Assembly (NCBI GenBank): GCA_026390345.1
Contig: JAPLGD010000068.1
Location: 24,078 to 88,077, forward strand
DNA: 64,000 nt
Source: Candidatus Bipolaricaulota bacterium
GTDB taxonomy: Bacteria; Bipolaricaulota; Bipolaricaulia; UBA7950; UBA9294
Reading direction: 5' to 3'
In this document: piece after piece, positions 1-46,130 of the stretch
Numbering within the stretch: position 1 is the stretch's first letter
How the letters are laid out: each line of letters begins with the position of its first letter
Position numbers and translations under genes: made by a program
The notes under the pieces: model-generated
Told to the model about the DNA's origin: nothing
Database searches by the model: none
Seen by the model: only the letters and a program-made list of their open reading frames with translations

Positions 1-582
1 CCGACGGCCGAACTCGGTCCCGATTTCGCTCTCGATGAGGGAACCACGGTTCGCCTGACCCCCGTCGTCGCCGATCCCGAGTGCGACAACCTGACCTACT
101 GCTGGACCGTGACGGCCGGCACGCTCGTCGGAGCGAACGACGCGACCCCGACGTTCACGGCCCCCATGACGAACGACTGCGCGGGGACTTCGCTGGTCAT
201 CACGCTGACAGTGACGGACCCGTGCGGGCTCCAGGCCAAGGACTCGGTCACCGTCCACGTGCGCAACGTCAACGGCGCGCCGACGGTTGAGTTGGGAGAT
301 CCGGTCTGCCTGATGGAAGGAGCGCCGCTCCATCTCATCCCCACGGTCTCCGATCCGGATGGCGACCCGCTCATCTACGCGTGGTGCGTCTCGGCGGGTA
401 AGCTTGACAGCTCCTGCGCCGGGGCACCGGTCTTCATCGCCCCCGTCGTCAAGGACTGCACGGGCATGGACGTCACCGTGACCCTCGTGGTCACCGATCC
501 TTGCGGGCTCACGGCCACGGACACGCTCGTTCTGCACATCGGCAACGTCAACACGCCGCCCACGGTGACGGCGGATCCGTAG
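1..582 (+). CDS. Partial (5' end cut by the window edge) secreted repeat protein with two ~95-aa PKD/Ig-like repeat units
   Basis: The frame is open from nt 1 to a TAG at 580-582. The internal repeat shares DPxGDxLxYxW ... TVTDPCGL ... NVNxxPTV motifs. GC3-rich codon usage. Confidence 0.6.
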   Translation, partial: PTAELGPDFALDEGTTVRLTPVVADPECDNLTYCWTVTAGTLVGANDATPTFTAPMTNDCAGTSLVITLTVTDPCGLQAKDSVTVHVRNVNGAPTVELGDPVCLMEGAPLHLIPTVSDPDGDPLIYAWCVSAGKLDSSCAGAPVFIAPVVKDCTGMDVTVTLVVTDPCGLTATDTLVLHIGNVNTPPTVTADP

Positions 583-615: not shown

Positions 616-660
616 GATCTGCTCCGCCCCTCACAAAGGGGCGGAGCAGATCCTCTTTCT
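616..660 (+). terminator. Intrinsic-terminator-like hairpin with a 15-bp perfect stem, loop tcacaaa, followed by CTCTTTCT
   Basis: GATCTGCTCCGCCCC-tcacaaa-GGGGCGGAGCAGATC lies 34 nt after the TAG of the upstream + gene. The right arm and loop overlap the stop codon and last codons of the convergent minus-strand gene. Confidence 0.45.
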
Positions 661-1164
661 CGCCTCGCACTCGAGCGCCCCAAGATCCGCAAGAACACGC
701 GCCCCGATCGGGTTCTCGCCCGCGAGGGCATGGGCGACGTGAAGGTGGAGGCACTTGACGCACCGGAGGTCGGCGACGCCGCCGATCCCTCGGTCGAGAA
801 GCCCGCGCAGCATCCCGCGCGCTGCCAGGGTCGCCCGGTCCTCAGCTGACAGGCGTGCCGCTCGGAGCTCGATGTAGACGCGGTGCGCCCTCTCGAAGTC
901 CGCGCGAAGCCGGTCGTCCCGCCGCACGTCGTCCTCCAGGCGGGCCACCCATCCGGCGGACTCCACAGCAGACACTGCGCGCCGCAGGTGTGGGCACGTG
1001 AGCCAGTAGAGGGTTGGGAACGGAGCCCCGTCGACCACGGGGTGAACCACGACGACCTGAGGACAACCGAACCGACAGCGGCGAGCGATCCCATCGACGC
1101 CGCGCGGAGCACGGCCGATCTGGCGCCGGACGACGAGGAGGTCGTCTACTCTCGCCAGGTCCAC
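631..1164 (-). CDS. Conserved hypothetical protein, DUF501-like (GAPFPTLYWLTCPHL and CVKCLH motifs)
   Basis: The C-terminal 177 aa of ORF 631..1902 have protein-like composition. A GTG at 1164 is preceded by GAGGA. The ORF overlaps the upstream gene's stop by 19 nt. The N-terminal part of the tracked ORF is Arg-rich read-through. Confidence 0.55.
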   Translation of the reverse strand: MDLARVDDLLVVRRQIGRAPRGVDGIARRCRFGCPQVVVVHPVVDGAPFPTLYWLTCPHLRRAVSAVESAGWVARLEDDVRRDDRLRADFERAHRVYIELRAARLSAEDRATLAARGMLRGLLDRGIGGVADLRCVKCLHLHVAHALAGENPIGARVLADLGALECEARKRICSAPL

Positions 1165-1886
1165 GTCGGATCCTCGTACCGCCCCAGGCGGAGGGTCTCC
1201 GCCCGCTCGACTTCCTCCGCGGTCAGTCCATCTCCGCCGTCCGGATCGCCGAGGACGCGAGTCAGAGCCGAACCCAGCGCGGCCGCGGCCTCTTGCGGAC
1301 CGACTCGACGACCCAGGAGCTCCGAGAGCGTCGTCGTGGGCCTCGGCCGCGAAGGGATCTGCGTCGGAGCGTAGCCTGCCCGCAGCGCGCGCAGGTAGCG
1401 CTCCATCGGGACGGCGTCCGGCTCGAGGAGCAACGTGCAGTGGTAGAGGACCGCGCGGCCTCGCCTCGCTTGGGCCGCGCCGGACAGCTTGCCGAGACGG
1501 CTCACGACCGCGGTCCCCTCCGCGCGCGCATCGGCTCCCATCCCGCAGACCGCACCGGCGACGCACGCGCCGAGGCGCTCGAACGCTTCTTCGACTCCTC
1601 CGGCGGCCTCGCTCGGGACGACCACGGAAACGTTCAGGTTGCCGGGGTAGTGAAGGACGGCGCCCCCGCCCGAGGCGCGTCGCACGACAGGGACGCCCGC
1701 TCGCTCGACGGCCGCGAGATCGACCTCGTCCGCAACCCGCTGGGACCGCCCAATCACGACGGCTCGATCCCCGATCCAGAAGCGGAGGATCGGCTCGCCG
1801 CCGCCGCGCACTGATTCTAGGAGGGCCTCGTCCAACGCCAGCCCGCGGCTTGCGGGCTCCGGCAAGAGGTCTATCCGCCGCCTCAT
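1146..1886 (-). CDS. Lipoate-protein ligase family protein, catalytic BPL/LPL domain only (LipL/LipM/LplA-N-like, 246 aa)
   Basis: The internal ATG at 1886 forms an ATGA overlap with the lipA stop (tcat at 1883-1886 on +). Motifs RFWIGDRAVVIGRSQ and GGGAVLHYPGNLNVSVVVP match the family. There is no C-terminal LplA accessory domain. Confidence 0.75.
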   Translation of the reverse strand: MRRRIDLLPEPASRGLALDEALLESVRGGGEPILRFWIGDRAVVIGRSQRVADEVDLAAVERAGVPVVRRASGGGAVLHYPGNLNVSVVVPSEAAGGVEEAFERLGACVAGAVCGMGADARAEGTAVVSRLGKLSGAAQARRGRAVLYHCTLLLEPDAVPMERYLRALRAGYAPTQIPSRPRPTTTLSELLGRRVGPQEAAAALGSALTRVLGDPDGGDGLTAEEVERAETLRLGRYEDPTWTWRE

Positions 1887-2824
1887 CGGGCTCCGTACAC
1901 AACCTGGGCGTGGTACGAGCTTCGAACCAGGGGTCCCGCGATGACCCACGAGAACCCGATCTCCCTCGCCTCGCCCTCGATCTCTCGGAACTCCTCCGGC
2001 GGCACGTACCGACGAAGCGGCGCCGACGACGAGGTCGGGGGAAGGTACTGGCCGATCGTCACCCAGCTGGTCCCCGCTTCGTGCAGGTCCCCGAGCGCTT
2101 CGCGGATCTCGCTGCGCCGCTCTCCCAGTCCCAGCATGAGACCGCTCTTGATCGCCCTCCCCCTCGCCCCCGTGCGAAGGAACTGAAGGACGTCGAGCGA
2201 TTGCTGGTACGACGCCCGGCGGTCGCGGAGCGCGGGCGTCAACCGCGCCACGGTCTCGAGGTTGTGCCCCAGGATGTCGGCTTCGCACGCCATCACGCGA
2301 AGCAGCCATCGCGGGTCGCCGGAGAAGTCCGGAAGCAGGAGCTCGACCACGCTTCCCGGCGATGCCCGCTTGATTTCGAGCACCGTCTCGACGAACGCGG
2401 CGGCTCCTCCGTCGGGGAGGTCGTCCCGATCCACCGACGTGAGAACGACGTGCTGCAGTTTGAGGTCCCGCACCGCCGCGCCGACTCGCGCCGGCTCGCC
2501 TCGGTCGAGGGCGCCTTCCGGACTCCCCGTCTTGACCGCGCAGAACCTGCACCCGCGCGTACAGATGTCGCCCAGGATCATGAACGTCGCCGTCCCCGCG
2601 CTCCAACACTCAACCGCGTTCGGGCACAGGGCGCCCTGGCAGATCGTCCTGAGTCGGTGTTGGGCCAGGACCTGCCGCACGACGCGCATCCTCTCGGCCG
2701 CCGCCGGCGTTGGAACGTGGACCTTCAGCCACTCCGGTCGTTCAGGCACAGACCCGCTCCTCAAGATCCGCGAGCGCGCGGCGTTCGAGTCGCCAGTCGA
2801 GCAGGCGAGCGAGGTTGGCCGCAA
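1883..2824 (-). CDS. lipA: Lipoyl synthase (radical SAM)
   Basis: RPEWLK, CPNAVECW...GTATFMILGDICTRGCRFCAV and other LipA signature stretches. The TTG start at 2824 overlaps lipB by 83 nt; a later in-frame GTG at 2749 is an alternative start. Confidence 0.85.
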   Translation of the reverse strand: MRPTSLACSTGDSNAARSRILRSGSVPERPEWLKVHVPTPAAAERMRVVRQVLAQHRLRTICQGALCPNAVECWSAGTATFMILGDICTRGCRFCAVKTGSPEGALDRGEPARVGAAVRDLKLQHVVLTSVDRDDLPDGGAAAFVETVLEIKRASPGSVVELLLPDFSGDPRWLLRVMACEADILGHNLETVARLTPALRDRRASYQQSLDVLQFLRTGARGRAIKSGLMLGLGERRSEIREALGDLHEAGTSWVTIGQYLPPTSSSAPLRRYVPPEEFREIEGEAREIGFSWVIAGPLVRSSYHAQVVYGAR

Positions 2825-3389
2825 AGGCCTCCTCGACCTCTCCCACGCCGATCGGCCGCGCCAGGAGCTCGCTCATCGACACCGTCTTCACCGGAAGACC
2901 GCACGGGTTGATCATCCCGAAGTGAGCTGGGTCGACGTTCACGTTCAGCGCGAGACCGTGGCGCGTCACCCATTCCTTCACGTAGATGCCGACCGAGGCG
3001 ATCTTCCCCTCCTGTACCCACACGCCCGGGAATCCCGCACGTGGTCCGGCGTCGATGCCAAACCCGCGAAGCGTGTCGATCGCCGCGCCCTCCAGCGTCC
3101 CCACGTAGCGCTTCACGTCTCGCCCGTGGCACCGCAAATCGACGATCGGGTAGGCGACCAGCTGCCCGGGGCCGTGGTACGTCATGTCCCCGCCGCGCTC
3201 CACGTCAATCACGGGGATCGCCGCGCGGTCGACGTCCTCGGCCGAGACGAGGTACTCCACTGGCCCGGCGCTGCGCCCCCGCGTGAAGACCGGGTCGTGC
3301 TCGACCGTAAGAAGGACGTCGGGGAGTCCTCCCTCGACGCGGAGGGCATGCACGCGACGCTGAATCCCGAGAGCCCGGCCGTACTCCAT
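2742..3389 (-). CDS. lipB: Octanoyltransferase (lipoyl(octanoyl) transferase)
   Basis: MEYGRALGIQRRVHALRVEGGLPDVLLTVEHDPVFTRG ... ERGGDMTYHGPGQLVAYPIVDL ... KIASVGIYVKEWVTRHGLALNVNVD matches LipB. ATG at 3389; a GTG at 3404 is an alternative. The longer tracked ORF would overlap the upstream gene. Confidence 0.8.
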   Translation of the reverse strand: MEYGRALGIQRRVHALRVEGGLPDVLLTVEHDPVFTRGRSAGPVEYLVSAEDVDRAAIPVIDVERGGDMTYHGPGQLVAYPIVDLRCHGRDVKRYVGTLEGAAIDTLRGFGIDAGPRAGFPGVWVQEGKIASVGIYVKEWVTRHGLALNVNVDPAHFGMINPCGLPVKTVSMSELLARPIGVGEVEEAFAANLARLLDWRLERRALADLEERVCA

Positions 3390-3417
3390 TCGCCCGAGCG
3401 GCACATGGAACGCGGTC

Positions 3418-3663
3418 TCACTCTGTCGTGATGTCGCCGAGTCGGTCACCGACCTGCACCCGCTTCCCTTCCTCCGCCGCGATGCTCGCCAAGCGCCCCG
3501 ACGCGGGAGCCGGCACCACGAACGTCGTCTTCTCGGTCTCGACCTCGAGGAGGTCATCGCCCTCCTGCACCGCGTCGCCGACACCTCGGAGCCACCCGAC
3601 CACGACCGCGCCCTCGATCTCGCCGAGATCGGGAAGGAGAACCTCCGTCGTCGCCCGCTTCAT
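3418..3663 (-). CDS. Stand-alone lipoyl/biotinyl-attachment domain protein (81 aa) with an EVETEK lipoyl-lysine motif
   Basis: LPDLGEIEGAVVVGWL...GDDLLEVETEKTTFVVPAPASGRL is a canonical E2-type lipoyl domain. It is the first gene of the lipB-lipA-ligase operon. Confidence 0.7.
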   Translation of the reverse strand: MKRATTEVLLPDLGEIEGAVVVGWLRGVGDAVQEGDDLLEVETEKTTFVVPAPASGRLASIAAEEGKRVQVGDRLGDITTE

Positions 3664-3759
3664 GTCGCCGTCCTTTCGCGCGGAGTCTAGCCGATCCTCC
3701 TCCCACGGTCATCTTGTCATCCCGCGGCCTCGCTCCTATAGTTGCCGCGAGGTGATCGC

Positions 3760-4848
3760 ATGGGCTTCGCGTGTGGTCTGGTCGGGCTTCCCAACGCAGG
3801 GAAGTCGACGATCTTCAACGCGCTGGCCAACGCCGGCGCACGCGTCGAGTGCTACCCCTTCTGCACCATCGAAGCCAACGTCGGTTCGGCCGCCGTCCCC
3901 GACACGCGCCTCGATCGGCTCGCCACGCTCTTCCCGGAGAAGAAGAAGGTGCCGACCCACCTCGACGTCATCGACATCGCGGGCCTCGTCCAAGGGGCCA
4001 GCGAGGGAGAGGGAATGGGAAACCAGTTCCTCTCCGAGATCCGAGTCGTCGACGCGATCCTTCACATCGTTCGTTGCTTCGAAGATCCGAACGTCGCCCA
4101 CGTGACGGGATCGATCGACCCTCTGCGGGACATCGGGATCGTCGAGACGGAGCTCCTGCTCAAGGATCACGAGACCCTGAGCCGTGTCGCCGCGCGTCTC
4201 CACGGGGAGTCCCGAGGCCCCGATCGACACGCGCCCGCCCGCGAGGCGGCCTGGAACGTGCTCGTCGAACAGGTCGCCAGGGGACATCCCGTGCGATCCG
4301 TCCCCATCGCACACGAGATTGCCGACCTCGTCCGGGAAACGTCGCCTCTCACGGCAAAGCCGTGCTTGTTCGTCGCCAACGTTGACGACGGCGGAGAGAA
4401 CGAGTACTCCCGGGCCGTGTTCGCCGCCGCGCGCGAACGAGGGGCCGAGGCCGTCATGCTGCGAGGGCGCCTCGAGGCCGAGATCGGCGAGGCCTGCTCG
4501 ACGCCCGAGGAGCGCGCCGCGTACCTAGGCGAGTACGGTCTCTCCGAGACCGGACTCACCGCCCTTGTCCGCGCCGGGTACCGTCTCCTCAACCTCATCA
4601 CGTTCTTCACCGTCGAGGGCCCCGAGGTCCGCGCCTGGACCGTTCCGGTCGGAACGACCGCGCGTGCCGCGGGCGGCAAGATCCACTCCGACTTCGCCGA
4701 TCGGTTCGTCGTGGCCGAAGTGATGACCCTCGACGACCTTCTCCGCACCGGCTCCGAGAAGGTGCTCCGAGACGCAGGGAAGATCCGACGTGCAGGGCAC
4801 GACGCGCTCATCGCCGATGGGGAAGTCGTCCACTTCGTGTGCGCATGA
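3760..4848 (+). CDS. ychF: Ribosome-binding ATPase YchF (Obg family)
   Basis: MGFACGLVGLPNAGKSTIFNAL ... DIAGLV ... and a C-terminal TGS-like region. ATG at 3760 is preceded by GAGGTGA. Confidence 0.9.
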   Translation: MGFACGLVGLPNAGKSTIFNALANAGARVECYPFCTIEANVGSAAVPDTRLDRLATLFPEKKKVPTHLDVIDIAGLVQGASEGEGMGNQFLSEIRVVDAILHIVRCFEDPNVAHVTGSIDPLRDIGIVETELLLKDHETLSRVAARLHGESRGPDRHAPAREAAWNVLVEQVARGHPVRSVPIAHEIADLVRETSPLTAKPCLFVANVDDGGENEYSRAVFAAARERGAEAVMLRGRLEAEIGEACSTPEERAAYLGEYGLSETGLTALVRAGYRLLNLITFFTVEGPEVRAWTVPVGTTARAAGGKIHSDFADRFVVAEVMTLDDLLRTGSEKVLRDAGKIRRAGHDALIADGEVVHFVCA

Positions 4849-5462
4849 TTCCCACGGTGCTTGCGTACGACGACCCGCGCGTTCCCGGTCTCGTGGTCGA
4901 GGCCCTCGAGACCGGGCTCACGCTCGTCTTCCCGACGGACACGATCTACGGAATCGGGGGAAACCCGTGGGATGAGGCTGTGCTGCAACAGGTGCGCCGC
5001 CTCAAGGGGCGTGATTCCGAACAGCCGTTCACGCTTCACCTCGGCTCAGTAGACGCCGTGGAGGCATTCGCCGTCCTCACCGATCGTCAACGGGCGTCCG
5101 TCCGATCGCTCGTCCCCGGACCCTACACCCTTCTCCTCGCGGCTCGGTCCGACGCCCCAACCTCGGCCGTCCAGAACGGCACCGTTGGAATCCGAGTCCC
5201 CGACCATCCGTTCTTCGCGCGCATCATGGCGACGCTCGGCCGTCCGCTCTTCGGGACGAGCGTGAACCCGCACGGCCTTCCGCCACTCTCGGACGTGAAC
5301 GAGATCATCGACCGGTTCCCGTCGATCGACATCATCTTGACGGGGCCCATCGGCGGCCGTCCCTCCGACATCATCGACATGACCGCCGACCCGCCGCGCG
5401 CTGTTCGCGGAACCCTCCCGCCCCAGCTCGCCGCGTCGGGCGACAAGTCCGGCACGGGCTAG
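4845..5462 (+). CDS. tsaC: L-threonylcarbamoyladenylate synthase (YrdC/Sua5 domain)
   Basis: ATG at 4845 overlaps the ychF TGA (ATGA). Motifs FPTDTIYGIGGNP and RLKGR match the YrdC family. Confidence 0.8.
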   Translation: MIPTVLAYDDPRVPGLVVEALETGLTLVFPTDTIYGIGGNPWDEAVLQQVRRLKGRDSEQPFTLHLGSVDAVEAFAVLTDRQRASVRSLVPGPYTLLLAARSDAPTSAVQNGTVGIRVPDHPFFARIMATLGRPLFGTSVNPHGLPPLSDVNEIIDRFPSIDIILTGPIGGRPSDIIDMTADPPRAVRGTLPPQLAASGDKSGTG

Positions 5463-6367
5463 ACGAGGAACAACGCCGCCACTCCGGCCACCGTCAGCGC
5501 CGTTCCCACGTAGGCTCGCCATGTCGGCCGTTCGCCGAACGCAAGGGGCGACACCGGGAGGAGGAAGACGGGGGTGACGGCCATCAGGGTTGACGCCACG
5601 CCGACGGAGGCGTTGGCCAGTGCCACGAGGGAGAAGGTTACGCCGAGGAACGGCCCGAACACCGAGCCCACGCCCGTCGCAACCGCCGCCCGCCGATCGC
5701 GGAGCGCTTCGAAGGTTCTTGCCCAGCCGCGATTCCGGCCCGCGACGGCCCAGGCGGCGACCGTTGCCGCCAGGATCTGGATGAGATTCGTGGACACGGG
5801 CGGGAACCCGCCACGCATCCCTTCGACGGACAGCAGGTACCGGGTCGCCTGAGCGACGACCGCTCCAAGAGCGAACAGGAGGCCGAGCTTGAGGCTCCCC
5901 TTGGCTGTGCCGGGCTTGGCGTCGGTCCGTCGCCCCGCCAAGACGAGGAGAGTCCCGCCCACGACTCCCGCGCTCGCCACGACCTCCGTCCAGCCCAAGC
6001 GTTCGCCGAACGCGGCCCAGGCGAGGAGCGTGCTCACGACGGGGACGAGCGCCGCAAGCATCGAAGTCCGGTGGGCGCCAAGATGGAACAGGGCGCGGTA
6101 CAGAAACGCGTCGCCGATCGCGAACCCGATCACCCCGGAGAGCGACAGCCACAGCCAGCGGCTCGGCTCGGCCTCCAGCGGGATGAGTGTCCCTGTGAGG
6201 ATGAGGTGTGTAGCGACGAGGAGAACGAGGGCGAACAACAGCCGCAGCCGGTTCAGCGCGTCGGCGCCGATTCGGCGCACGGCGAGCGTGAACGCCGTGT
6301 AGCTCCCGGTCCACAGCGCCGCGGTCCCGAGCGCCGCGAGCGCACCCAAGCGGTCAGGCGAGATCAT
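5459..6367 (-). CDS. EamA/DMT-family transporter (drug/metabolite exporter), 10 predicted TM helices
   Basis: Hydrophobic protein with a duplicated EamA-like architecture. ATG at 6367 lies 3 nt after the stop of the upstream lyase gene. Confidence 0.8.
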   Translation of the reverse strand: MISPDRLGALAALGTAALWTGSYTAFTLAVRRIGADALNRLRLLFALVLLVATHLILTGTLIPLEAEPSRWLWLSLSGVIGFAIGDAFLYRALFHLGAHRTSMLAALVPVVSTLLAWAAFGERLGWTEVVASAGVVGGTLLVLAGRRTDAKPGTAKGSLKLGLLFALGAVVAQATRYLLSVEGMRGGFPPVSTNLIQILAATVAAWAVAGRNRGWARTFEALRDRRAAVATGVGSVFGPFLGVTFSLVALANASVGVASTLMAVTPVFLLPVSPLAFGERPTWRAYVGTALTVAGVAALFLV

Positions 6368-6370
6368 GAC

Positions 6371-7753
6371 CTACTTCCGGGGAACGATCTCGAATCGAGC
6401 GACGAAGTGGCGGAGCGGGCCTTCCCCCTCAACGATCTTGTACCCCGGGAGCGACTTCGCCTTGCGGGCGACTGCCTCGCCCCCTCGGATCACGGCGTCG
6501 AAGTGCGTCCTGGTGTACATCCGCCGCGGGATGGCGAGGCGCACCATCTCGAGGCGCGGATACACGGTGCGCCCCTCCGCATCGGGATGAGCGAACATCA
6601 CGCTCCCGATCTCGACGCCTCGCACGCCGGCCTCGAGGTAGAACGCGTTCGTCACGGCAAGAGCGGGGAACGCCGCCTGCGGGAATCCCGGAAGCAGTCC
6701 CAGGGCGTCGATGTAGACCGCGTGGCCGCCGATCGGCTCGATGATTGGAACTCCTCGGTCCTTGAGGCCCTCACCCAAGTAGCGGGCCTGTCCGACCCGG
6801 TCGGCGAGGTACGCCGGATCGAGCGCCTCGCGGAGACCGACGGCGATCGATTCCAGATCCCGCCCCGCAAGGCCCCCGTACGTCGGGAACCCTTCCATCA
6901 GGATGAGCCGCTCCCGCGCCGCCTCGAACAGGTCGCGATCGTTCATCGCGAGGATCCCACCGATGTTCGCCAGCCCATCTTTCTTGGCGCTCATCGTCAT
7001 GCCGTCGGCAAGCGAGAAGATCTCCCGCGCGATCTCGAGCGGCGTCTTGTCCGCGTACCCCGGCTCCCGCTCGCGGATGAAGAAGATGTTCTCTGCGAAT
7101 CGGCACGCGTCGATGAAGAGAAGCAGCCCGTGTCGGTGGGCGATTTGGCTCACCTCGCGCAGGTTCTCGAGCGACACGGGTTGGCCGCCGGCGCTGTTGT
7201 TCGTGATGGTCATCATCACGAACGGGATGCGCTCCGTGCCCACCTCAGCGATCAGCTTCTCCAGTTTCGCCGGATCGAGATTCCCCTTGAACGGGTGCAG
7301 CGTGCGCGGCTCGTAGGCAACGTCGATCGGCAGGTCCACCGGATCGCCGCCGTTCGCGAGGAGGTTCGCCCGCGTCGTGTCGAAGTGCATGTTGTTCGGA
7401 ACGACGTGCCCGGGCCTCACGACGGCCGAGAAGAGCACGTTCTCCGCCGCTCGTCCCTGGTGCGTGGGAAGGACGTAGCGGAAGCCGAAGATGTCGTCGA
7501 CGGCGGCGCGGAATCGGTCGTAGCTCCGGCTGCCGGCGTACGACTCGTCCCCGCGCATCATCGCCGCCCATTGGTCCTGACTGAGCGCCCCCGTCCCGGA
7601 GTCGGTCAGGAGGTCGACGTACACGTCGTCGGCACGCAGGTTGAACACGTTGTAGCCCGCCTCCACGAGGCGCGCTTCCCTCTCTCGAGGGGAAAGCAGG
7701 GTGATCGGTTCGACCACCTTGATGCGGTACGGCTGGTAGATCGCTTCGTCCAT
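6371..7753 (-). CDS. Tryptophanase / tyrosine phenol-lyase family beta-eliminating lyase (PLP-dependent)
   Basis: Near-complete motif match to TnaA/TPL ([58 protein letters not shown]). ATG at 7753 is preceded by GAAAGG. A GTG at 7783 is a longer alternative start. Confidence 0.85.
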
Positions 7754-7993
7754 CAGACTCGCCTTTCTTAGGGACCACTTCACAAAGAACCCGTTCGTTC
7801 TGCGTCGGCGTTCTGTTCAGGCGCCACGGAACCGCGGACAGGGGATGTTCCGGCGCACGACCTCGAGAGGGTTCGACTTCCGCGTCACCCACCGTGGATT
7901 CGTCCGCATCGACACGGCCAACGTGAACCACCCCCGCGCGAAGAAGAGTCACAGAATGGTAGATGGGTGCCCCCGTCGCGGCAAGGCGATCGG

Positions 7994-8044: not shown

Positions 8045-8887
8045 GTGCGGGCGGAGATCGACAGGGCCATTGCGGCAGGTGAAGTCGAGGGACTCGTTCG
8101 TGCGCTCGCGGGTGAGCGCTCTTCCGGGATTCGTTTCGCGGCACGACGAGTCGTCGAGACGACGTCCCAGGACGGCGCGCTGCTCCAACGCACGGCGGAG
8201 CTGGCGCAGAGGCCCGAGGCGCCGGCGCGCCAGCTGGCCTCGATTCTCTGTGTGCACGCCCACGCCGACGCACCCGGTCCGGCGCTCGACCTCTTGTCTC
8301 GCCTCGTCGACGACGGGGAAGCTTCCGTGCGCGACATGGCCGCAGAGTCGGCCGGCCGACTCCTCGAGGCAGAGTTCGTTCACGTCTTGGCTCGAATCGA
8401 GCGGTGGCGAGACGATCCCTCTCCCAGCGTTCGACACGCCGTTCTTGTCGCCGTCACCGGCGCCGCACGTCGAGAGCGTCCCGAGCGGGCCGAGCCGCTC
8501 CTCCGCTTGATCGCCCCTCTCCTCACCGATCGTGATCCCCTCGTCCGCCGCGCGCTCGGCCCTTCGGCCGTCGCCGCCCTCCTGCAGCATTACCCGAGCC
8601 TCGCGTTCGAGCACCTGGTCCAGTGGTCGACGTCGAACGACGAGCAGGTGTTGTGGAACGTCGCCATGGCGTTCACGTCCCCCGCCGCGGCCGACGTCGC
8701 CAAGAAGGCGCTCATCGTGCTGCGGAAGCTGTCCCTCGACGAGCGCCGCTACGTCTGGCGCGCGGTGGCCACCGCCATGTGGAAGCTTGGACGGAAGAGG
8801 CCCGACGTCGTTCGTCCCGAGCTCGCACGTTGGCTCGAGGACGAGGAACGCGTCGACATCGCGCGAGCGGCGCTGACGTACCTCTAG
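8045..8887 (+). CDS. HEAT-repeat protein, possibly of the DNA-alkylation-repair (AlkD-like) type
   Basis: Helical repeats of the type SPSVRHAVL, DRDPLVRRAL and NDEQVLWNVAMA. GTG start after GAGGGGGG. Confidence 0.5.
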   Translation: MRAEIDRAIAAGEVEGLVRALAGERSSGIRFAARRVVETTSQDGALLQRTAELAQRPEAPARQLASILCVHAHADAPGPALDLLSRLVDDGEASVRDMAAESAGRLLEAEFVHVLARIERWRDDPSPSVRHAVLVAVTGAARRERPERAEPLLRLIAPLLTDRDPLVRRALGPSAVAALLQHYPSLAFEHLVQWSTSNDEQVLWNVAMAFTSPAAADVAKKALIVLRKLSLDERRYVWRAVATAMWKLGRKRPDVVRPELARWLEDEERVDIARAALTYL

Positions 8888-8927: not shown

Positions 8928-9677
8928 ATGACCCAGAAGGACCGCAAACCCGGCGCGCTCGTGACCGGCAGCTCACGCGGCATCGGCGCCGCCATCGCGC
9001 GGCGCCTCGCCGAGCTCGGATACGGAGTGTGCATCAACTACGTCGCGTCGGAGGCCGCAGCCCACGACCAGGTACGCACGATCGAAGCGAAAGGCGGCCG
9101 CGCGGTCGCTGTCCAGGGCGACGTCGCGTCGTTCTCCGACGTGGAGCAGATGGTCAGGAAGACGGCCGAAGCCTTCGGCGGAATCCGCATTGTCGTCAAC
9201 AACGCCGGTTTTTCCGAGCACGCCACCGTCGAGGGGACAACGATCGACGCGTGGAATCGCGCCGTCGCCGTGAACCTGTCCTCCGCGTTCTACGCGGTGA
9301 AGGCAGCACTACCGTACCTGCGAAGCGAGCCGTGGGGGCGAATTGTCAACATCTGTTCGCTCCGCGCGATGACCGGCTCCGACCACGGCGCCCACTACGC
9401 CACGGCGAAGGCCGGGCTGATCGGGCTGACCAAGTCGCTCGCTCTGGAGCTGGCGCCCGCCATCACCGTCAACGCGGTCTCGCCGGGCTACACGCGAACG
9501 GACATGACGAGGGATTCCCTCGCTCGCCACGGCGAGGCAATCCTGGCGCGCATTCCGGCGCACCGCGCGGCGGAGCCGGAGGAAATCGCCGCCCTCGTCG
9601 CGTTCCTCGCCTCGGAAGATGCGGCCTATATCACCGGGGAAACGGTCAACGCCAACGGCGGCATCTACATGAGATAG
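8928..9677 (+). CDS. SDR-family oxidoreductase (FabG-like 3-oxoacyl reductase fold)
   Basis: TGSSRGIG, NNAG and YxxxK (YATAK) motifs. Confidence 0.85.
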   Translation: MTQKDRKPGALVTGSSRGIGAAIARRLAELGYGVCINYVASEAAAHDQVRTIEAKGGRAVAVQGDVASFSDVEQMVRKTAEAFGGIRIVVNNAGFSEHATVEGTTIDAWNRAVAVNLSSAFYAVKAALPYLRSEPWGRIVNICSLRAMTGSDHGAHYATAKAGLIGLTKSLALELAPAITVNAVSPGYTRTDMTRDSLARHGEAILARIPAHRAAEPEEIAALVAFLASEDAAYITGETVNANGGIYMR

Positions 9678-9690
9678 GTGGTGAAGGCGC

Positions 9691-10932
9691 ATGAAACCCG
9701 CAGTGGAGATCCGCGAGTACCGACCGAGCGAGGACGCCGACGCCTGCCGCCGCACGTGGAACGAGAGCGGCTGGGTGGACGGCGCGAAGAACGAGGAAGC
9801 CTTCCGCCTGTTCGCCGAGAGCGCCCGGTCCGTCGTCGGCGTGGTGGACGGATCGGCCGAGTGCCTGGTCAACGTCCATTCGGGGTCGCTCCGCTACCTC
9901 GACCTCGACATCCCGCTCGCCTGCGTGACCGGAGTCACGACGAGCCGCATCGTGCGTCGGCAGGGTCTGGCCGGCCGCAGCACCGCGTGGGCGCTCGCCG
10001 CGGAGGCGATCGCGGGGACTCCCGTCGCGGCGCTCGGCGTCTTCGAACAGGGGTTCTACAACCGGCTCGGATTCGGCAACGGTCCCTACGAGACCTGGTG
10101 CACGTTCGACCCGGCGCAGCTCGTGGTGCACTCGACGCCCAGGATCCCGGCGCGCCTCACATCAGCAGATTGGGAGGCCGTCCATGCGAGCCGCCTCCGG
10201 CGCCGCCGCTGGCACGGCGCCGCCACCATCCTGTCCGGCGAGCTGACTCGCGCCGACATGCTGTGGGGCGAGAAGTCGTTCGGTCTCGGATACCGCGATG
10301 AGACCGGCGCCCTCACGCACCACATCTGGTGCTCGACTGAGAAACCACGCCGTGGTCCGTACTCCGTCGACTGGATGGCCTTCCGCACGCGCGAGGAATT
10401 CCACGAGCTCCTCGCCCTGATCCACAGCCTCGCCGACCAGATCCACTCGATCGAGATCCATGAACCTCCGGGCCTGCAACTGCAGGACCTGCTCCGGCAG
10501 CCGTTCAAGGGCCGCCGGATGACCGAGGCGTCGCCCCACGTCCAGCGCATGTCATCAAGCGCCTATTGGCAACTGCGAATCCTCGACCTCCATCGCACGC
10601 TCGCCGTGACGCACCTGCCTGCCGGACCGGTGCGCTTCAACCTCGAGCTCTCCGATCCGATCGAGAGTGCGCTTCCTGCGCGCTCGCCGTGGCGAGGCGT
10701 TGCAGGCTCGTACGTCGTCACGTTGGGTCCCGAGAGCGGCGCCGAGCGCGGCGCGAATCCAGCGCTCGCGACACTGCGAGCGTCTGTCAACGCGTTCTCA
10801 CGCACATGGCTCGGCGTTCGGTCACCGACCAGCCTCTCCTGGACGGACGACCTCGAAGCGCCGCCCGCTCTCCTTGGGAGCCTCGATCGAGCCCTCTGCC
10901 TGCCGGCGCCGGCGTGCGACTGGGATTACTGA
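9691..10932 (+). CDS. GNAT-family N-acetyltransferase with Eis-like three-domain architecture
   Basis: 413 aa with an N-terminal GNAT fold (RQGLAGRSTAWAL) and a C-terminal SCP2-like tail. ATG is preceded by GGTGGTGAAGG. Confidence 0.7.
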   Translation: MKPAVEIREYRPSEDADACRRTWNESGWVDGAKNEEAFRLFAESARSVVGVVDGSAECLVNVHSGSLRYLDLDIPLACVTGVTTSRIVRRQGLAGRSTAWALAAEAIAGTPVAALGVFEQGFYNRLGFGNGPYETWCTFDPAQLVVHSTPRIPARLTSADWEAVHASRLRRRRWHGAATILSGELTRADMLWGEKSFGLGYRDETGALTHHIWCSTEKPRRGPYSVDWMAFRTREEFHELLALIHSLADQIHSIEIHEPPGLQLQDLLRQPFKGRRMTEASPHVQRMSSSAYWQLRILDLHRTLAVTHLPAGPVRFNLELSDPIESALPARSPWRGVAGSYVVTLGPESGAERGANPALATLRASVNAFSRTWLGVRSPTSLSWTDDLEAPPALLGSLDRALCLPAPACDWDY

Positions 10933-10977
10933 CCGGGCACGACGGTGAACCGCTGGCTCTGACGCTGCGACTCACCT

Positions 10978-11118
10978 ATGATGATGGGCCGAGGTTTCCA
11001 TCTTGTGAATGAGAAGAGAGATTTCGCCGATGGAGGTCTCCATCTCGTGGACGAGAAGAGAAGGTTCGTCGATGGCGGGCTCCACCTCTTCGACGCAGAA
11101 GGGAGGGTTCACTCATGA
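10978..11118 (+). CDS. Candidate 46-aa tandem-repeat peptide MMMGRGFHLVNEKRDFADGGLHLVDEKRRFVDGGLHLFDAEGRVHS (not in the ORF track)
   Basis: The open frame begins after a TGA at 10960-62. Three consecutive ATGs, no stop for 46 codons, and a TGA that overlaps the ATG of the next gene (ATGA at 11115-11118). The frame encodes 14-aa repeats matching the 42-bp DNA repeats. There is no clear SD. Confidence 0.3.
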   Translation: MMMGRGFHLVNEKRDFADGGLHLVDEKRRFVDGGLHLFDAEGRVHS

Positions 11119-11121
11119 GGG
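10996..11121. repeat. Three tandem copies of an imperfect 42-bp repeat (units 10996-11037, 11038-11079, 11080-11121)
   Basis: Units A and B are about 33/42 identical. All share the core TCCAyCTCkTGrAyGAGAAGAGA..TTCG.CGATGG.GG. Confidence 0.7.
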
Positions 11122-11345
11122 TATTGCGAGGAGTTATCTCCGGAGGCGGCATTGCGGCGTTCTTCTTCTTCAGCTGGGTCATCGAGGCGCTCTGGAACAG
11201 CATCTTGGTCGACCAGCTCGGCCTCGTCGCGGTGAAGGTGAACTACTGGCAAGCGGCCGCGTTGTGGTTCCTGTCGATCATCTTCTTCGCCGGAGCCGGA
11301 ATCGTCGCGTCGCCGCGCGTACGAAGGTGGTGGAGGAGCGACTAG
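11115..11345 (+). CDS. Small two-TM membrane protein (76 aa) with a basic C-terminal tail
   Basis: ATG at 11115 is preceded by GGGAGG at 8 nt spacing. Two hydrophobic helices (GIAAFFFFSWVIEALW and AALWFLSIIFFAGAGIVA) precede a PRVRRWWRSD tail. Confidence 0.55.
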   Translation: MRVLRGVISGGGIAAFFFFSWVIEALWNSILVDQLGLVAVKVNYWQAAALWFLSIIFFAGAGIVASPRVRRWWRSD

Positions 11346-11478
11346 CGTCCCGCTCGGATCCAAACGGCAGCTCGAAGGGCACGGCCCGGCCGTCGACCCG
11401 GCCGCGTCATGCGCCAAGAGGAGCCTGACTCTGAACTCCAACTCCGCACACAGCGCCTGGGCCGAGCTTCGTCCCCTG

Positions 11479-12024
11479 ATGGACGAACGCTTCGTCATTC
11501 TCGACACCGAGACCACGGGCCTCCTTGCGCCGGAACTCGTCTCGGTCGCCGTCGTCGACTGCCGCGGGCGAACGGTGCTGTCCGAGACGGTTCGCCCGGC
11601 GAAGCCGATCGAACCGGAGGCGAGCCGCATTTCCGGAATCACGATGGAATCGGTTGCGGACCGACCGGAGTTCCCGGCCGTCGCCGCCGACGTCTCTCAA
11701 GCCCTTGACGGCCGGCTCGTGGTCATCTACAACGCCGCCTACGACACGCAGGTGCTCCGCAATACGTGTGCTCGTTACGGGATCGAGGTTCCCGCCTTTC
11801 GCCCCTGGTGTGCAATGGAGTGGTTTGCGCGCCTGTACGGCGAATGGGACGAAGGTCGCGGCGCCTACATTTGGCAGTCGCTGTCGAAGGCAGCTACGTA
11901 CTTCGGCGTCGTCCAAGAATCGGCGCACAGTGCCGTCGCGGACTGCCTCACGACGTGGAAGATCCTCGAGGAGGCCTTCCGGCGCTCCGGCCTGCGGGTT
12001 CCCGGCATGGAGCCGCTTCTCTAG
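11479..12024 (+). CDS. DEDDh 3'-5' exonuclease (DnaQ / DNA polymerase III epsilon-like)
   Basis: FVILDTETTGL, YNAAYD and H..AVADC motifs. Confidence 0.85.
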   Translation: MDERFVILDTETTGLLAPELVSVAVVDCRGRTVLSETVRPAKPIEPEASRISGITMESVADRPEFPAVAADVSQALDGRLVVIYNAAYDTQVLRNTCARYGIEVPAFRPWCAMEWFARLYGEWDEGRGAYIWQSLSKAATYFGVVQESAHSAVADCLTTWKILEEAFRRSGLRVPGMEPLL

Positions 12025-16654: not shown

Positions 16655-17326
16655 CTACTCGTCGTCTTCGCGGGGTGTGCCCCGTCGATGCCCGCGGCGG
16701 TCGGGCCGCCCGCGCGGCGCTCTCTGCGCCTTGCGCGCCGAGATCGGCAACTCCTGCTTCCGCGTCGTCTTCGCCTTCTCTGTGCAGAGCGCCACGAGCG
16801 CGTCGTGAATCGTTTCAAGCTGGTACTCGCGCGTCCTCTGAGTCACGGGGATGAGGTCGACCGTCGCCGCGCCGAGCTGCCTCGCCAGCCGCTCCATCGT
16901 GGCAAGGCATGACACCGCTCCGTTCCCGGAGCCGCCCGCCGCGGCTACACAGATCGTCGGCTTCTCCGCGAGCGCGCTCGCCGCACTCTCCGACTTCGTC
17001 GCTTCGCAGCGACGCAGCCGATCGAAGAACGCCTTGAACGCCTCGCTCGGCTCGCCGAAGTACACCGGGGTGACCCACACGAACGCCTCCGCCTCACCGA
17101 ACATCGCGTGCAGCTCTTCGAAGTCGTCCTCCAATCGGCATTCGTGCTTCGTCTTGCACGGTCCCCAACCGTCGGCGCACACAGCGCACCGCTCGATCAT
17201 GTAGCTCGGCAGGTTGACCACGCGCGCCGGACACCGGCCGTCCACAACCCCCTGCCGTGCCGCTTCTCCGCACGCAGCGGTCAGGCCAGCCTCGTTCGGG
17301 CTAGACGTGATGACAAGAACCTTCAT
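16655..17326 (-). CDS. Iron-sulfur flavoprotein-like / NADPH-dependent FMN reductase family (flavodoxin fold with a compact Cys cluster)
   Basis: MKVLVITSSP ... CAVCADGWGPCKTKHEC (CX2CX6CX5C). An ATGA overlap with the molybdopterin subunit stop at 17323-17326. Confidence 0.7.
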   Translation of the reverse strand: MKVLVITSSPNEAGLTAACGEAARQGVVDGRCPARVVNLPSYMIERCAVCADGWGPCKTKHECRLEDDFEELHAMFGEAEAFVWVTPVYFGEPSEAFKAFFDRLRRCEATKSESAASALAEKPTICVAAAGGSGNGAVSCLATMERLARQLGAATVDLIPVTQRTREYQLETIHDALVALCTEKAKTTRKQELPISARKAQRAPRGRPDRRGHRRGTPREDDE

Positions 17327-19656
17327 CGCTCTCCTTTCGGCCGTCGCTCACACACGAGCGCCTCAAGCACTCGTTCCGGCGTGAACGGCGTCCGCCGCAG
17401 GCGGATGCCTACGGCGTCGTAGATCGCGTTCGCGATCGTAGGGATGGGCCCGTTGATCCCGATCTCACCCACCGACTTGGCGCCCATCGGTCCCGTCGGC
17501 TCGTACGATCCCACCAGGATCACGTCAAGGTTCGGAACGTCGAGGGCCCCGGGAATCTTGTAGTCGAAGAGAGACGGGTTTCGCACCCGCCCCGTCGAGC
17601 TGAACAGCATCTCCTCGCTGAGAGCGTAGCCGATCCCGTTGACGATCGCCCCCTCCATCTGACCCTCCGCCATGAGGGGGTTGATCGCGACTCCGCAGTC
17701 CACGGCGGCCACGTAGTGTACGACCTTCACCCGCCCCGTCTCCACGTCCACGGCGACCTCAGCAAAGTTGGCCAGGAACGGCGGCGGGGACTCACTGGGG
17801 ACGCACGACGCCGTCGCCGCGATCTGGAACTGGTCCGACGAGTACATCGCTCGCCGACACACCTCGGCCAGCGAAACCCGCGCCCCCGCAGGGCCGACGG
17901 CGTGCTCGCCGACCAGCCGCAGGCTCTCGACGGACGCCTTCAGCATTGGCGCGGCCACCGACAGGATCTGGCCGCGCACTCCTTCCGCGGCCCGCTGGAC
18001 GGCCATCCCCGACACGTACGTCGTCGACGACGCGTACGCGCCGACGTCGAACGGGGTCAAGTCCGTGTCGGAGGACGTCACGATCATGCGCGACGCGGGA
18101 ACGCCGAGCACCTCGGCGGCAATCTGCGCGAGGATCGTGTCCGACCCGGTTCCGATATCGGTCGCCCCGACAAGCAGGTTGAACGACCCATCCTCGTTCA
18201 TCTTGATCGTCGCCGCGGCCATGTCGATCTGCGGGATTCCCGAGCCCTGCATCATGATCGACATTCCGACGCCGTGAACCCACGGCCCCTCGCGGCGCCG
18301 GGCTCCGCGCTTCTCACGCCAGCCGATTCGCTCGGCGCCGACCGCGATGCACCGCTCGAGCTCGCAGCTCTTGACCGTCTGCGAAACGCCCTCGCGTCCC
18401 TCTCCGAGCTTTTCGAAAATCGGCGATGTCTCTCCTACCCGGATGTGGTTTCGACGCCGCAACTCGATCGGGTCGAGGCCGAGGCGTTCCGAGAGCTCGT
18501 CCATCGCCGTCTCGAGCGGGAAGTACCCTTGCGTCGCACCGTAGCCGCGGTAGGCTCCCGGAACCGGGAGGTTCGTGTACACCGCCTGCCCGTAGAAGTG
18601 GGCGTTCTTCGCCTTGTTGTAGAGCGGCAGTGTCTTCGAACCGGTGTTGGCGAGCACGGTCAAGCCGTGCGCTCCGTATGCCCCCGTGTTCGACGTCGCC
18701 TCCATCTCGATCGCGTGGAGCACGCCGTCCTTGTTCGCACCAAGCTTCACGCGAACGCGCATCGGATGGCGGGTCCGCGCCGCGACGAACTCCTCCGCGC
18801 GCGACAGGCTGAGGAACGCGGCGCGTCCCGTCCGGAGCGTCACCCAGCCCGCGATGTCCTCGAGCAGGACCTCTTGCTTCGTGCCGAATCCCCCGCCGAC
18901 GCGCGGCTTGATCACCCGGATCCGTTGGATCGGGATCCCTAGCGTCTGTGCGACGATGCGCCGAACGTGGAACGGGACCTGCGTGCTCGTCCGTAGAACA
19001 AGCCGATCGTCGCTGTCGAGGTAGCTGTGGACGACGTGGGTCTCGATCGGCGTGTGTTGGGCGTACTGCGTCTCGCACGTCGTCTCCACGACCACGTCCG
19101 ACTCTACGAATCCACGCTCGACGTCGCCCACGTCAATGTCCACATCGGCGACGATGTTTCGTGCGGCTTCGTAAATCCCCGTCGAGTCCCCCTCGTCGTG
19201 AATGACGGGGGCCCCCTCGGCTCTCGCCTCGTCGATCGAGAGCACCGCCGGCAGTTCTTCGTACGTGACCCGGATCGCCCGCAAGGCCTCCTCCGCCGCC
19301 TCCTCTGTCTCCGCCGCCACCGCCGCGACGCGATCACCAACGAAGCGCACCTTCGTGTCGAACATCCGCGCGTCGTAGGGCGACGGTTCCGGATAGCCCT
19401 GGCCCGCCGTCGTGTGCCTTGTCGAAGGCGTGTTCTCGTACGTCAGGATCGCGATCACACCGGGGATCTGCGCCGCCGCGGAGCTGTCGATTCGGACGAT
19501 GCGGGCGTGCGCGTGAGGGCTCCCAAGGATCTTGACGTAGAGCACGTCCGACAGGTCAACGTCAGCGACGAATTTCGGTTTCCCTTTGACGAGACCGACG
19601 CCGTCGACCTTGCGGACGCTTTGCCCGACGACGACAAACGACTCTCGCTCAGCCAT
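17323..19656 (-). CDS. Xanthine dehydrogenase/aldehyde oxidase family molybdopterin-binding large subunit (CoxL-like, 777 aa)
   Basis: Typical N-terminal a/b-hammerhead (VRKVDGVGLVKGKPKFVADV) and molybdopterin-binding domains. It overlaps the 2Fe-2S gene. Confidence 0.9.
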   Translation of the reverse strand: MAERESFVVVGQSVRKVDGVGLVKGKPKFVADVDLSDVLYVKILGSPHAHARIVRIDSSAAAQIPGVIAILTYENTPSTRHTTAGQGYPEPSPYDARMFDTKVRFVGDRVAAVAAETEEAAEEALRAIRVTYEELPAVLSIDEARAEGAPVIHDEGDSTGIYEAARNIVADVDIDVGDVERGFVESDVVVETTCETQYAQHTPIETHVVHSYLDSDDRLVLRTSTQVPFHVRRIVAQTLGIPIQRIRVIKPRVGGGFGTKQEVLLEDIAGWVTLRTGRAAFLSLSRAEEFVAARTRHPMRVRVKLGANKDGVLHAIEMEATSNTGAYGAHGLTVLANTGSKTLPLYNKAKNAHFYGQAVYTNLPVPGAYRGYGATQGYFPLETAMDELSERLGLDPIELRRRNHIRVGETSPIFEKLGEGREGVSQTVKSCELERCIAVGAERIGWREKRGARRREGPWVHGVGMSIMMQGSGIPQIDMAAATIKMNEDGSFNLLVGATDIGTGSDTILAQIAAEVLGVPASRMIVTSSDTDLTPFDVGAYASSTTYVSGMAVQRAAEGVRGQILSVAAPMLKASVESLRLVGEHAVGPAGARVSLAEVCRRAMYSSDQFQIAATASCVPSESPPPFLANFAEVAVDVETGRVKVVHYVAAVDCGVAINPLMAEGQMEGAIVNGIGYALSEEMLFSSTGRVRNPSLFDYKIPGALDVPNLDVILVGSYEPTGPMGAKSVGEIGINGPIPTIANAIYDAVGIRLRRTPFTPERVLEALVCERRPKGER

Positions 19657-20988: not shown

Positions 20989-21303
20989 GTCTCCTTCGCG
21001 TTCTTCGCGTCGATTATTGCCATCGCCTCGGGCCGAAACAAGCGGACCCGGCTTCCCGTGTTTGCACGCCGTGGTGCCTCGCATCGCCCATCTTGTCGTA
21101 TCCTCCATGTGATGCTATCCTGTGACTACGCATAGCGGCCTCCTGTCCGGAACGCCGTGCCTCATCCGGCGGGCGGAGCAAGGCTACAGAAGCTGCGGCT
21201 CCGCCCGCCCTCCGTTTCCCGGCCGTATCGTTGTCTGACCGTCCGACAGCCGCTATCCTCTCCCCCGCAGGTTGCAGAAAGCGCCGACCGGAACGGAGGT
21301 CCG

Positions 21304-22629: not shown

Positions 22630-22639
22630 GGAGGCGACC

Positions 22640-42897: not shown

Positions 42898-42900
42898 CGC

Positions 42901-43437: not shown

Positions 43438-43446
43438 CTCGCGCTC

Positions 43447-44582: not shown

Positions 44583-44615
44583 ACGACCTCCTCCCCTTTC
44601 CTTCTCGTTTCTCGA

Positions 44616-45746: not shown

Positions 45747-45761
45747 AGTAGTTGGGACCCG

Positions 45762-45950: not shown

Positions 45951-45980
45951 CTGCGTCTCCTCGCCTAGGGGTCGCCCTTG

Positions 45981-46125: not shown

Positions 46126-46130
46126 GGGGG

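Follow-up and report, generated by a model that had tools for sequence, protein, structure and literature searches.

Lipoate is assembled in several known ways: by LipB and LipA, by LipM, LipA and LipL, by LIPT2, LIAS and LIPT1, by LplA-dependent salvage, or by the sLpl(AB)-LipS1/S2 system. The enzymes of lipoate assembly are known to have been recombined as modules, and amidotransferases as yet unknown may exist (Tanabe et al., 2023). Here, we analyse a five-gene operon in a 64,000-nucleotide stretch of the genome of a Candidatus Bipolaricaulota bacterium (contig JAPLGD010000068.1, positions 24,078 to 88,077), the whole of which we call the window. The operon joins lipB and lipA to genes for an LplA-family protein without its accessory domain (hereafter the half ligase), a stand-alone lipoyl-domain protein (LD) and a DUF501 protein, and on this gene content it is a lipoyl-cofactor assembly operon of Bipolaricaulota. 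Every enzyme family in it is already known, and its genes are routinely annotated in metagenome-assembled genomes (MAGs) and in Candidatus Bipolaricaulis anaerobius Ran1. Our literature searches returned no paper discussing this operon as a system, its free LD or a bacterial relay that depends on LipB.

Among the described systems, the mitochondrial relay (LIPT2/Lip2, GCSH/Gcv3, LIAS/Lip5 and LIPT1/Lip3) resembles the operon in its parts, since LipA is combined with an octanoyltransferase of the LipB type and with an enzyme of the LplA type that is, or in our case would be, unable to activate free lipoate. LIPT1, itself a 'half ligase', follows a LipB homologue and functions as an amidotransferase. 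Acyl groups are moved between lipoyl proteins, as we propose by analogy for Bipolaricaulota, and yeast Lip3, an LplA homologue, can take an E2 lipoyl domain as donor (PMC7831266). In contrast to the half ligase, however, LIPT1 retains a repositioned C-terminal domain. In eukaryotes, GcvH is the hub from which E2 subunits are supplied, whereas Bipolaricaulota are mostly devoid of E2 and have an 81-aa LD encoded in the operon; their system is also bacterial and operonic. The LipM-GcvH-LipA-LipL relay of Bacillus subtilis and Staphylococcus likewise employs catalytic-domain-only proteins of the same superfamily and a relay logic such as we propose here, but LipM and LipL have an active-site cysteine (C150 in LipL) that the half ligase lacks, and the octanoyltransferase of the operon is LipB.

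The bipartite ligase of Thermoplasma acidophilum, LplA (Ta0514) with LplB (Ta0513), is similar in another respect: its LplA matches the half ligase in size, in the lipoyl-AMP-binding motifs and in fold over the full length of both proteins. Unlike in our operon, where no LplB is found nearby, lplA and lplB are adjacent and co-transcribed in T. acidophilum; the archaeal protein has an HD motif in place of H(Y/H)P, and the half-ligase gene belongs to a lipB-lipA operon. Escherichia coli has the same three enzyme families in one organism (LipB-LipA and LplA), with K133 kept, but its LplA has 337 aa including a C-terminal domain, the gene is unlinked and there is no free LD. Finally, the sLpl(AB)-LipS1/S2 system also encodes a small lipoyl carrier together with maturation enzymes, although in that system LbpA, a GcvH-like protein, is the carrier, LipS1/S2 acts as synthase, the ligase includes an LplB domain and the whole is tied to sHdr sulfur oxidation. 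These sHdr-linked traits, LbpA and LipS1/S2, are absent from Bipolaricaulota (Tanabe et al., 2023).

Organization and conservation of the operon

Five co-directional genes, identified by their Pfam and NCBIfam matches, occupy positions 631-3663 on the minus strand of the window:

3418..3663, minus strand: LD, stand-alone E2-type lipoyl-domain protein, 81 aa (PF00364, E=3e-17)
2742..3404, minus strand: lipB, octanoyl-ACP:protein N-octanoyltransferase (NF010925 and TIGR00214, above cut-offs)
1883..2749, minus strand: lipA, radical-SAM lipoyl synthase, 288 aa (NF004019 and TIGR00510, above cut-offs)
1146..1886, minus strand: LplA-N-type half ligase, 246 aa (PF21948, E=1e-40)
631..1164, minus strand: DUF501 protein, 177 aa (PF04417, E=1e-41, 142.4 bits against a cut-off of 23.8)

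A previous reading of this DNA, made from the sequence only, had proposed these identities, this order and this strand, all of which the domain matches bear out. It had also noted that lipA is coupled to the ligase gene through ATGA, and the overlap of the lipA stop with the half-ligase start is indeed visible at 1886..1883. Two further junctions overlap, by 8 nt between lipB and lipA and by 19 nt between the half-ligase gene and DUF501. The start of lipB is ambiguous (GTG at 3404, ATG at 3389, which is the gene caller's pick, or GTG at 3447); depending on the start chosen, it lies 13-28 nt past the LD stop codon or overlaps it.

To follow the operon through the phylum, one genome per GTDB species was scanned with the family alignment, which yielded 80 loci, and the five window proteins served as tblastn queries against 85 related loci, each gene being counted in those loci that had room for it. 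The same gene order recurs almost without exception (LD in 71/72, lipB and lipA each in 72/72, DUF501 in 74/75), among relatives reaching down to about 35% protein identity, and a divergent half-ligase subfamily also sits in the same operon. The junctions are kept as well. The lipB/lipA overlap is present in 71 of 77 loci, that of lipA with the half-ligase gene in 75 of 82 and that of the half-ligase gene with DUF501 in 72 of 79, being exactly 19 nt in 47 of these, while the gap between LD and lipB is at most 30 nt in 64 of 74. As the operon and its overlapping junctions are conserved across about 80 species-level genomes, the five products appear to be made together. In the closed genome of Ran1, LD (BARAN1_v2_0255, labelled 'putative E2, weak evidence'), lipB (0256), lipA (0257) and lplA (0258) are consecutive, and gcvH (0562) is located far from them.

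Most of the 80 loci are labelled Bipolaricaulota or Acetothermia. The others have the same operon and are titled either simply 'uncultured bacterium' or uncultured Thermotogae, Thermotogota, Candidatus Atribacteria, Candidatus Neomarinimicrobiota or Thermotoga sp. (L007, L009-L014, L028, L037, L060 and L062 among them); these latter names probably denote mislabelled Bipolaricaulota bins. The arrangement is conserved far beyond chance and is a hallmark of Bipolaricaulota (Acetothermia/OP1). The 246-aa and 81-aa proteins of the window are themselves 100% identical to proteins of a MAG labelled 'Candidatus Bipolaricaulota bacterium'.

LipB and LipA

Both enzymes of the lipB-lipA core score above their family cut-offs. 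LipB reaches 161.7 bits with NF010925 (cut-off 155) and 154.4 bits with TIGR00214 (cut-off 83.55), and its catalytic pair is conserved in 74 orthologues (K134 in 100%, C168 in 99%). LipA obtains 355.8 bits with NF004019 (cut-off 203) and 311.3 bits with TIGR00510 (cut-off 310.25). Its two Fe-S cluster motifs, the auxiliary CX4CX5C (C37, C42 and C48) and the radical-SAM CX3CX2C (C63, C67 and C70), are at least 98% conserved in 81 orthologues, and R276 and S278 of the C-terminal RSSY are 100% conserved. The prediction that LipB and LipA form a de novo lipoate route is secure. Genes for acyl carrier protein (ACP) and for FabH, FabD and FabG are found 6-8 kb from the operon in relatives, so octanoyl-ACP should be available.

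A free lipoyl domain in hosts mostly without E2

LD carries the motif E40-V-E42-T-E-K45-T-T-F48, in which K45 is the lipoyl-lysine, and E40, E42, K45 and F48 are invariant across 73 members of the family. Bovine LIPT1 requires a glutamate three residues ahead of the lysine (K-3) in the acceptor lipoyl domain; in LD this residue is E42, conserved in 100% of the sequences. The 73 orthologues, each 66-86 aa long, all stand alone, without an attached E2 core. When a set of 5.8 billion proteins was searched, the best 120 of 185 homologues were about 75-90 aa long and those with a meaningful organism name were labelled Bipolaricaulota. The top NCBIfam matches of LD are N-terminal lipoyl domains of E2 subunits (1e-15 to 1e-16) and its top PDB sequence match is to the lipoyl domains of a pyruvate dehydrogenase (PDH) E2 (E=3.5e-21). 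The earlier proposal that the possible carrier is an E2-type lipoyl domain rather than GcvH is borne out by PF00364 and by these E2 model scores. Some NCBI records name the protein 'biotin attachment protein'. We rejected a role as biotin carrier, since LD has no MKM motif and matches biotin carboxyl carrier protein models at 1e-4 to 1e-5 only, as against the far better E2 values.

Lipoyl proteins are few in these organisms. Of the 46 Bipolaricaulota genomes surveyed by Tanabe et al. (PLoS Biol 2023, S4 Table), 45 have GcvH and 7 have E2, whereas none has LbpA and none has LipS; LipA is present in 40, LipA together with LipB in 39 and LipM in 3. 'LplA' is scored in 36 of the 46, the half-ligase family having simply been counted under this name. 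In Ran1, pyruvate and 2-oxoglutarate are oxidized by ferredoxin oxidoreductases (the pyruvate and 2-oxoglutarate enzymes POR and KOR), no PDH is present and there is a glycine cleavage system. The only lipoyl proteins in the curated metabolic gene table of this organism are GcvH and LD, the latter as a weak E2 match, and GcvH and LD are the only lipoyl proteins known in the phylum. Elsewhere in the window, a lipoyl-motif regular expression and Pfam scans of 39 open reading frames (ORFs), five of which are the operon, revealed no gcvH, E2, lpd (E3) or LplB and no lipoate-dependent enzyme. The gene at 50660-52531 (plus strand) encodes a protein of 623 aa with POR_N and TPP_enzyme_C domains, which is of the alpha type of indolepyruvate (IOR) or 2-oxoacid:ferredoxin oxidoreductases and fits a lipoate-independent oxidation of 2-oxoacids in the host.

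These data bear directly on the relay that the sequence-only reading had envisaged, in which LipB would load LD and the short ligase would hand the group on to the E2 of 2-oxoacid dehydrogenases. This scheme follows the logic of known relays, and a few genomes of the phylum do have an E2. However, 39 of 46 do not although the operon is near-universal, Ran1 relies on ferredoxin oxidoreductases in place of PDH, and the window itself encodes a POR/IOR-type enzyme but neither E2 nor E3. With GcvH present and E2 mostly missing, a relay to E2 is unsupported, and we consider this version highly improbable. The idea of a relay as such is nevertheless legitimate, given that an E2 lipoyl domain can act as donor for Lip3; what fails in most of the phylum is the acceptor. 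Nor would LipB as the octanoyltransferase of a relay be a new variant, since this is already the eukaryotic LIPT2-LIAS-LIPT1 scheme.

An LplA-type catalytic domain without its accessory domain

The half ligase is 229-251 aa long in 79 of 83 family members and terminates at a KYGxxxWN motif, where the C-terminal domain of E. coli LplA starts (the comparison sequence used was 100% identical to 1X2G); as had been proposed, it thus consists of the catalytic domain only. Residues R70, G73-G75, V77, H79, P81, G82, N83, K133, G136, A138 and Q139 are invariant in the 83 sequences, and K133 occupies the alignment position of the catalytic lysine, likewise K133, of E. coli LplA, so that the lipoyl-AMP-binding loop and the catalytic lysine are intact. 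The protein falls below every NCBIfam cut-off, with 110.8 bits against 280 for LplA (TIGR00545, matched over profile positions 15-240 of 328), 90 against 550 for LplAB and 61 against 480 for LplA_large (NF053750). All 38 members tested behave in this way and score best on ligase models, and beyond the family the closest proteins are of the LplA or LplA_large-like kind. Its top sequence match is the T. acidophilum LplA catalytic subunit (E=2e-19). The same protein, Ta0514, is the top PDB match of its AlphaFold2 model (mean predicted local distance difference test score, pLDDT, 95.3), with template modelling (TM) scores of 0.85/0.85 and 29% identity, ahead of LIPT1 (TM 0.81), the LipL-like 2P5I (0.73) and LipB (0.72).

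A likeness to LipL and LipM, suggested from the sequence earlier, did not hold. LipL needs Cys150, and LipM and LipB likewise use active-site cysteines, but the half ligase has no conserved cysteine, with no column of the 83-sequence alignment exceeding 39% Cys. This excludes the thioester chemistry of LipL, LipM and LipB, and the protein is therefore neither LipM nor LipL. It obtains only 26.8 bits with the LipM model (NF053589, cut-off 400) and 20.4 bits with that of LipL (NF047857, cut-off 450), as compared with 111 on the LplA model, and its fold is closest to Thermoplasma LplA. For these reasons we find it quite improbable that the half ligase is a second, LipM-like octanoyl-ACP transferase, with each transferase serving one acceptor (for instance LipB acting on LD and the short protein on GcvH). 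LipB and LipM, moreover, rarely co-occur (Tanabe et al., 2023). Such a role would agree with the catalytic-domain-only architecture, which LipM shares, and with the segment H79-(Y/H)80-P81-G82-N83. The latter contrasts with the H-D-x-G-N of LplA enzymes, its Pro-Gly recalling the H-G-P-G-Q of LipB, and 11 of 38 members give weak matches to LipB models.

The sequence-only reading had itself considered that the short protein might group with archaeal-type LplA-N and, given a separate LplA-C gene elsewhere, be a scavenging ligase. Our results agree with the first half of this: by its structural match to the Thermoplasma catalytic subunit, the half ligase appears to be an LplA-N-type protein. It contains the two motifs that Borziak et al. 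give as diagnostic for LplA-N, RRxSGGGxVxH and K-x-x-G-x-A-Q, as well as the signature G(R/K)KxSGxAQ with invariant K133, G136, A138 and Q139. The signature RRxxGGGxxxHD, on the other hand, is modified, HD being replaced by H-(Y/H)-P in 82 of 83 half ligases; in LplA-N, this HD lies at the interface between LplA-N and LplA-C.

We therefore looked for the partner domain itself, with a profile of 47 C-terminal domains, each taken from a full-length LplA among the best 150 relatives in the representative search. In the six-frame ORFs of the window and 91 loci (968 kb), no LplB or LplA-C candidate exceeded 8 bits, the best having E=2.1. As a positive control, a profile from a 21-sequence subset detected, among PDB sequences, T. 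acidophilum LplB (3.5e-9) and the C-terminal domain of LIPT1 (4.6e-5), which indicates adequate sensitivity. PF10437 was likewise absent from seven Pfam-annotated operon neighbourhoods. LplB is thus found neither in the 64-kb window nor within 6-10 kb of about 85 operon copies, a search that was local rather than genome-wide.

It could still be that lipoate enters by two parallel routes, LipB and LipA acting de novo and LplA-N being the catalytic subunit of a salvage ligase whose LplB is unlinked, with LD as a further substrate. Archaeal LplA-N and LplB genes are often unlinked, the closest relative of the half ligase in both sequence and structure is a partner of LplB, and its motifs, its preference for ligase models, its nearest outside relatives and the many LplA-positive genomes of the phylum all agree with salvage. 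This is the main rival to the mechanism that we favour below, but we nonetheless judge it rather unlikely. No LplB was found around the operons by a search whose control worked, the interface HD is lost in nearly the whole family with P81 invariant, the LplA_large score remains far below its cut-off, and the half-ligase gene is translationally coupled to lipA. Salvage ligase genes are typically not coupled to lipA in this manner.

One locus (L086) contains a third member of the BPL_LplA_LipB superfamily, a 174-aa protein with PF03099 only and probably a biotin-protein ligase of the short kind; its gene (8089-8613, minus strand) adjoins ileS, about 1.2 kb downstream of the operon.

A possible relay between LD and GcvH

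Judged by its sequence, the half ligase displays features that would be expected of the LIPT1/Lip3 functional class: the accessory domain is absent and the gene shares an operon with lipB and lipA. Lacking that domain, it would presumably be unable to form lipoyl-AMP. The transfer step itself reportedly does not need the accessory domain, a result ascribed to Christensen and Cronan in 2009. Since LIPT1 and Lip3 offer the precedent of an amidotransferase and of an E2 lipoyl domain used as donor, we tentatively favour, as a possible rather than an established mechanism, a relay resembling the mitochondrial LIPT2-LIAS-LIPT1 pathway in which lipoate would pass from LD to GcvH or from GcvH to LD. 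LipB would octanoylate one of the two acceptors, the LD of the operon or GcvH, from octanoyl-ACP, and LipA would then insert two sulfur atoms. The half ligase would transfer the acyl group from the loaded acceptor to the other one, thus filling the role that LIPT1/Lip3 has after LIPT2/Lip2 (the LipB homologues) and LIAS/Lip5. DUF501 would be co-translated with the half ligase.

Several observations weigh against this mechanism. The invariant adenylate-binding loop and a conserved segment at 160-182 of the half ligase fit the use of lipoyl-AMP, that is, ligase chemistry. A relay for one downstream client, GcvH, also seems unnecessary because LipB of E. coli modifies GcvH directly. Coupling of lplA with lipA is also known from pure ligase-plus-LipA routes, as in the LplA-LipA fusion of NCBIfam, and LplB may be encoded elsewhere in the genome, unlinked. 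Finally, one locus (L068) has lipB, lipA and lplA without LD. This absence is real, as an aminotransferase abuts lipB upstream; that of DUF501 at the same locus is uninformative because only N letters (an assembly gap) follow downstream. The fusion family in question, NF053790, is a 606-aa 'bifunctional lipoate-protein ligase / lipoyl synthase', showing that LplA-LipA coupling recurs elsewhere.

DUF501 and its place in the operon

The gene downstream of the half ligase is as constant as the enzymes, DUF501 occupying this position in 74 of 75 loci. Across 48 sequences, some of which do not belong to Bipolaricaulota, C30, C57, E68, K137, C138, H140, H142 and C166 are invariant, whereas C173 is conserved in Bipolaricaulota only. 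C138, H140 and E68 are taken as the counterparts of C113, H115 and E59 of Rv1025, as equated through the common C-x-H spacing and not by direct alignment. The invariant set, with four Cys and two His, exceeds the published Cys-His-Glu triad, and the additional ligands could form a Cys4 or Fe-S site besides, or replacing, the proposed metal triad. The DUF501 family is essential in Mycobacterium tuberculosis, and no protein of related fold is known; in agreement with this, an AlphaFold2 model of the window protein (pLDDT 94.8) gave no fold match in the PDB.

One could imagine that the operon is a self-contained relay in which LD would be a mini-carrier replacing GcvH and DUF501 a working component of lipoate assembly. 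DUF501 could then be a non-homologous replacement of the missing LplB activating subunit, as its translationally coupled position next to LplA-N would suggest, or alternatively a Cys/His metal or Fe-S helper servicing LipA. We assign this proposal a low probability; were it true, the DUF501 family would be placed in a functional context for the first time. It is equally improbable, in our view, that some new activity dependent on lipoate, possibly involving DUF501, has LD as its lipoylated client, in which case a client and the enzymes that mature it would be encoded together in the operon. Sulfur oxidizers offer a precedent for such clusters, with LbpA next to sLpl(AB)-LipS1/S2. LD and DUF501 are both conserved, at opposite ends of the operon, the four Cys, two His and one Glu of DUF501 are invariant even in distant members, and LD is without a known enzyme partner since the phylum lacks E2 cores. 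Yet no fold or family clue ties DUF501 to lipoamide chemistry, and the family does not accompany lipoylation genes in the four contexts examined elsewhere.

A general link between DUF501 and lipoylation is indeed not supported. All four homologue contexts examined outside the phylum are unrelated to lipoylation, namely prmA/ABC genes, L21-L27-Obg, DUF501 alone and eno-DivIC-DUF501-Ppx; in Actinobacteria, DUF501 lies in eno-divIC-DUF501-ppx2. The linkage is therefore specific to the phylum, and it may be merely historical.

Operon boundaries and neighbouring genes

Two features delimit the operon:

616..652: hairpin, G+C-rich stem of 16-17 bp (terminator scan and RNA fold)
3664..3741, minus strand: divergent intergenic region between LD and ychF, 78 bp (sequence)

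The hairpin overlaps the DUF501 stop codon and is unusually stable (dG -43.5 kcal/mol, z = -5.83, with 0/200 shuffles as stable), in a window whose G+C content is 62-71%. It is probably a terminator common to the operon and to a convergent gene that ends at 582. This gene (1-582, plus strand, running left beyond the window start) encodes a large secreted-type protein; in relatives (L001 at 9535-11940, L003, L004 and L087) the convergent protein has about 720-800 aa with VWA, Cadherin-like/Big_9, PKD and HemolysinCabind domains. At the other end, AAAGGA stands 8 nt ahead of the LD ATG. The promoter must sit in the 78-bp intergenic region, although none was found for the operon in 3664..3741, the sole sigma-70-like match (3714-3742) being on the plus strand and facing ychF. 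No RNA element was detected inside the operon with Rfam, whose only matches in the window are four tRNA genes at 46-48 kb (45981-46053 and 47603-47903).

The ychF gene (3742-4848, plus strand) is divergent from the operon, 78 bp upstream of LD. It is followed by a Sua5/YciO/YrdC-family gene (4839-5462, plus strand), an EamA transporter (6367-5459, minus strand) and a beta-eliminating lyase (7783-6371, minus strand; tryptophanase / tyrosine phenol-lyase type), and this block from ychF to the lyase (3742-7783) also flanks the operon in L001-L004. Further away, 17323-21108 (minus strand) and 22640-27665 (plus strand) contain a molybdoenzyme set of the xanthine-dehydrogenase / CO-dehydrogenase type, with a large subunit of 777 aa, a [2Fe-2S] subunit of 158 aa and an FAD subunit of 328 aa. 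The set adjoins an amidohydrolase, a 1094-aa Fer4_20/Pyr_redox_2 protein, a pyridoxal phosphate (PLP) enzyme and a second [2Fe-2S] subunit, and the region 17323-27665 may be an island for the degradation of purines or pyrimidines. Judging from the size and succession of its genes, 42520-48000 (minus strand), where the four tRNA genes lie, looks like a ribosomal-protein / EF-Tu / SecE-NusG region.

Implications

Our analysis shows that a whole phylum joins the LipB-LipA core to an LplA protein lacking its accessory domain and to a free E2-type lipoyl domain, in hosts that are mostly without E2. For DUF501, a dark but essential protein family, the strict linkage to this operon provides a clue, albeit weak. 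Should the half ligase be a ligase subunit, bipartite LplA-LplB ligases would be extended to a new bacterial phylum. If it is an amidotransferase, the operon would represent a bacterial counterpart of the mitochondrial relay, with a minimal lipoyl domain as its hub. In either case, an orphan lipoyl domain in anaerobes that rely on ferredoxin oxidoreductases presents a testable puzzle.

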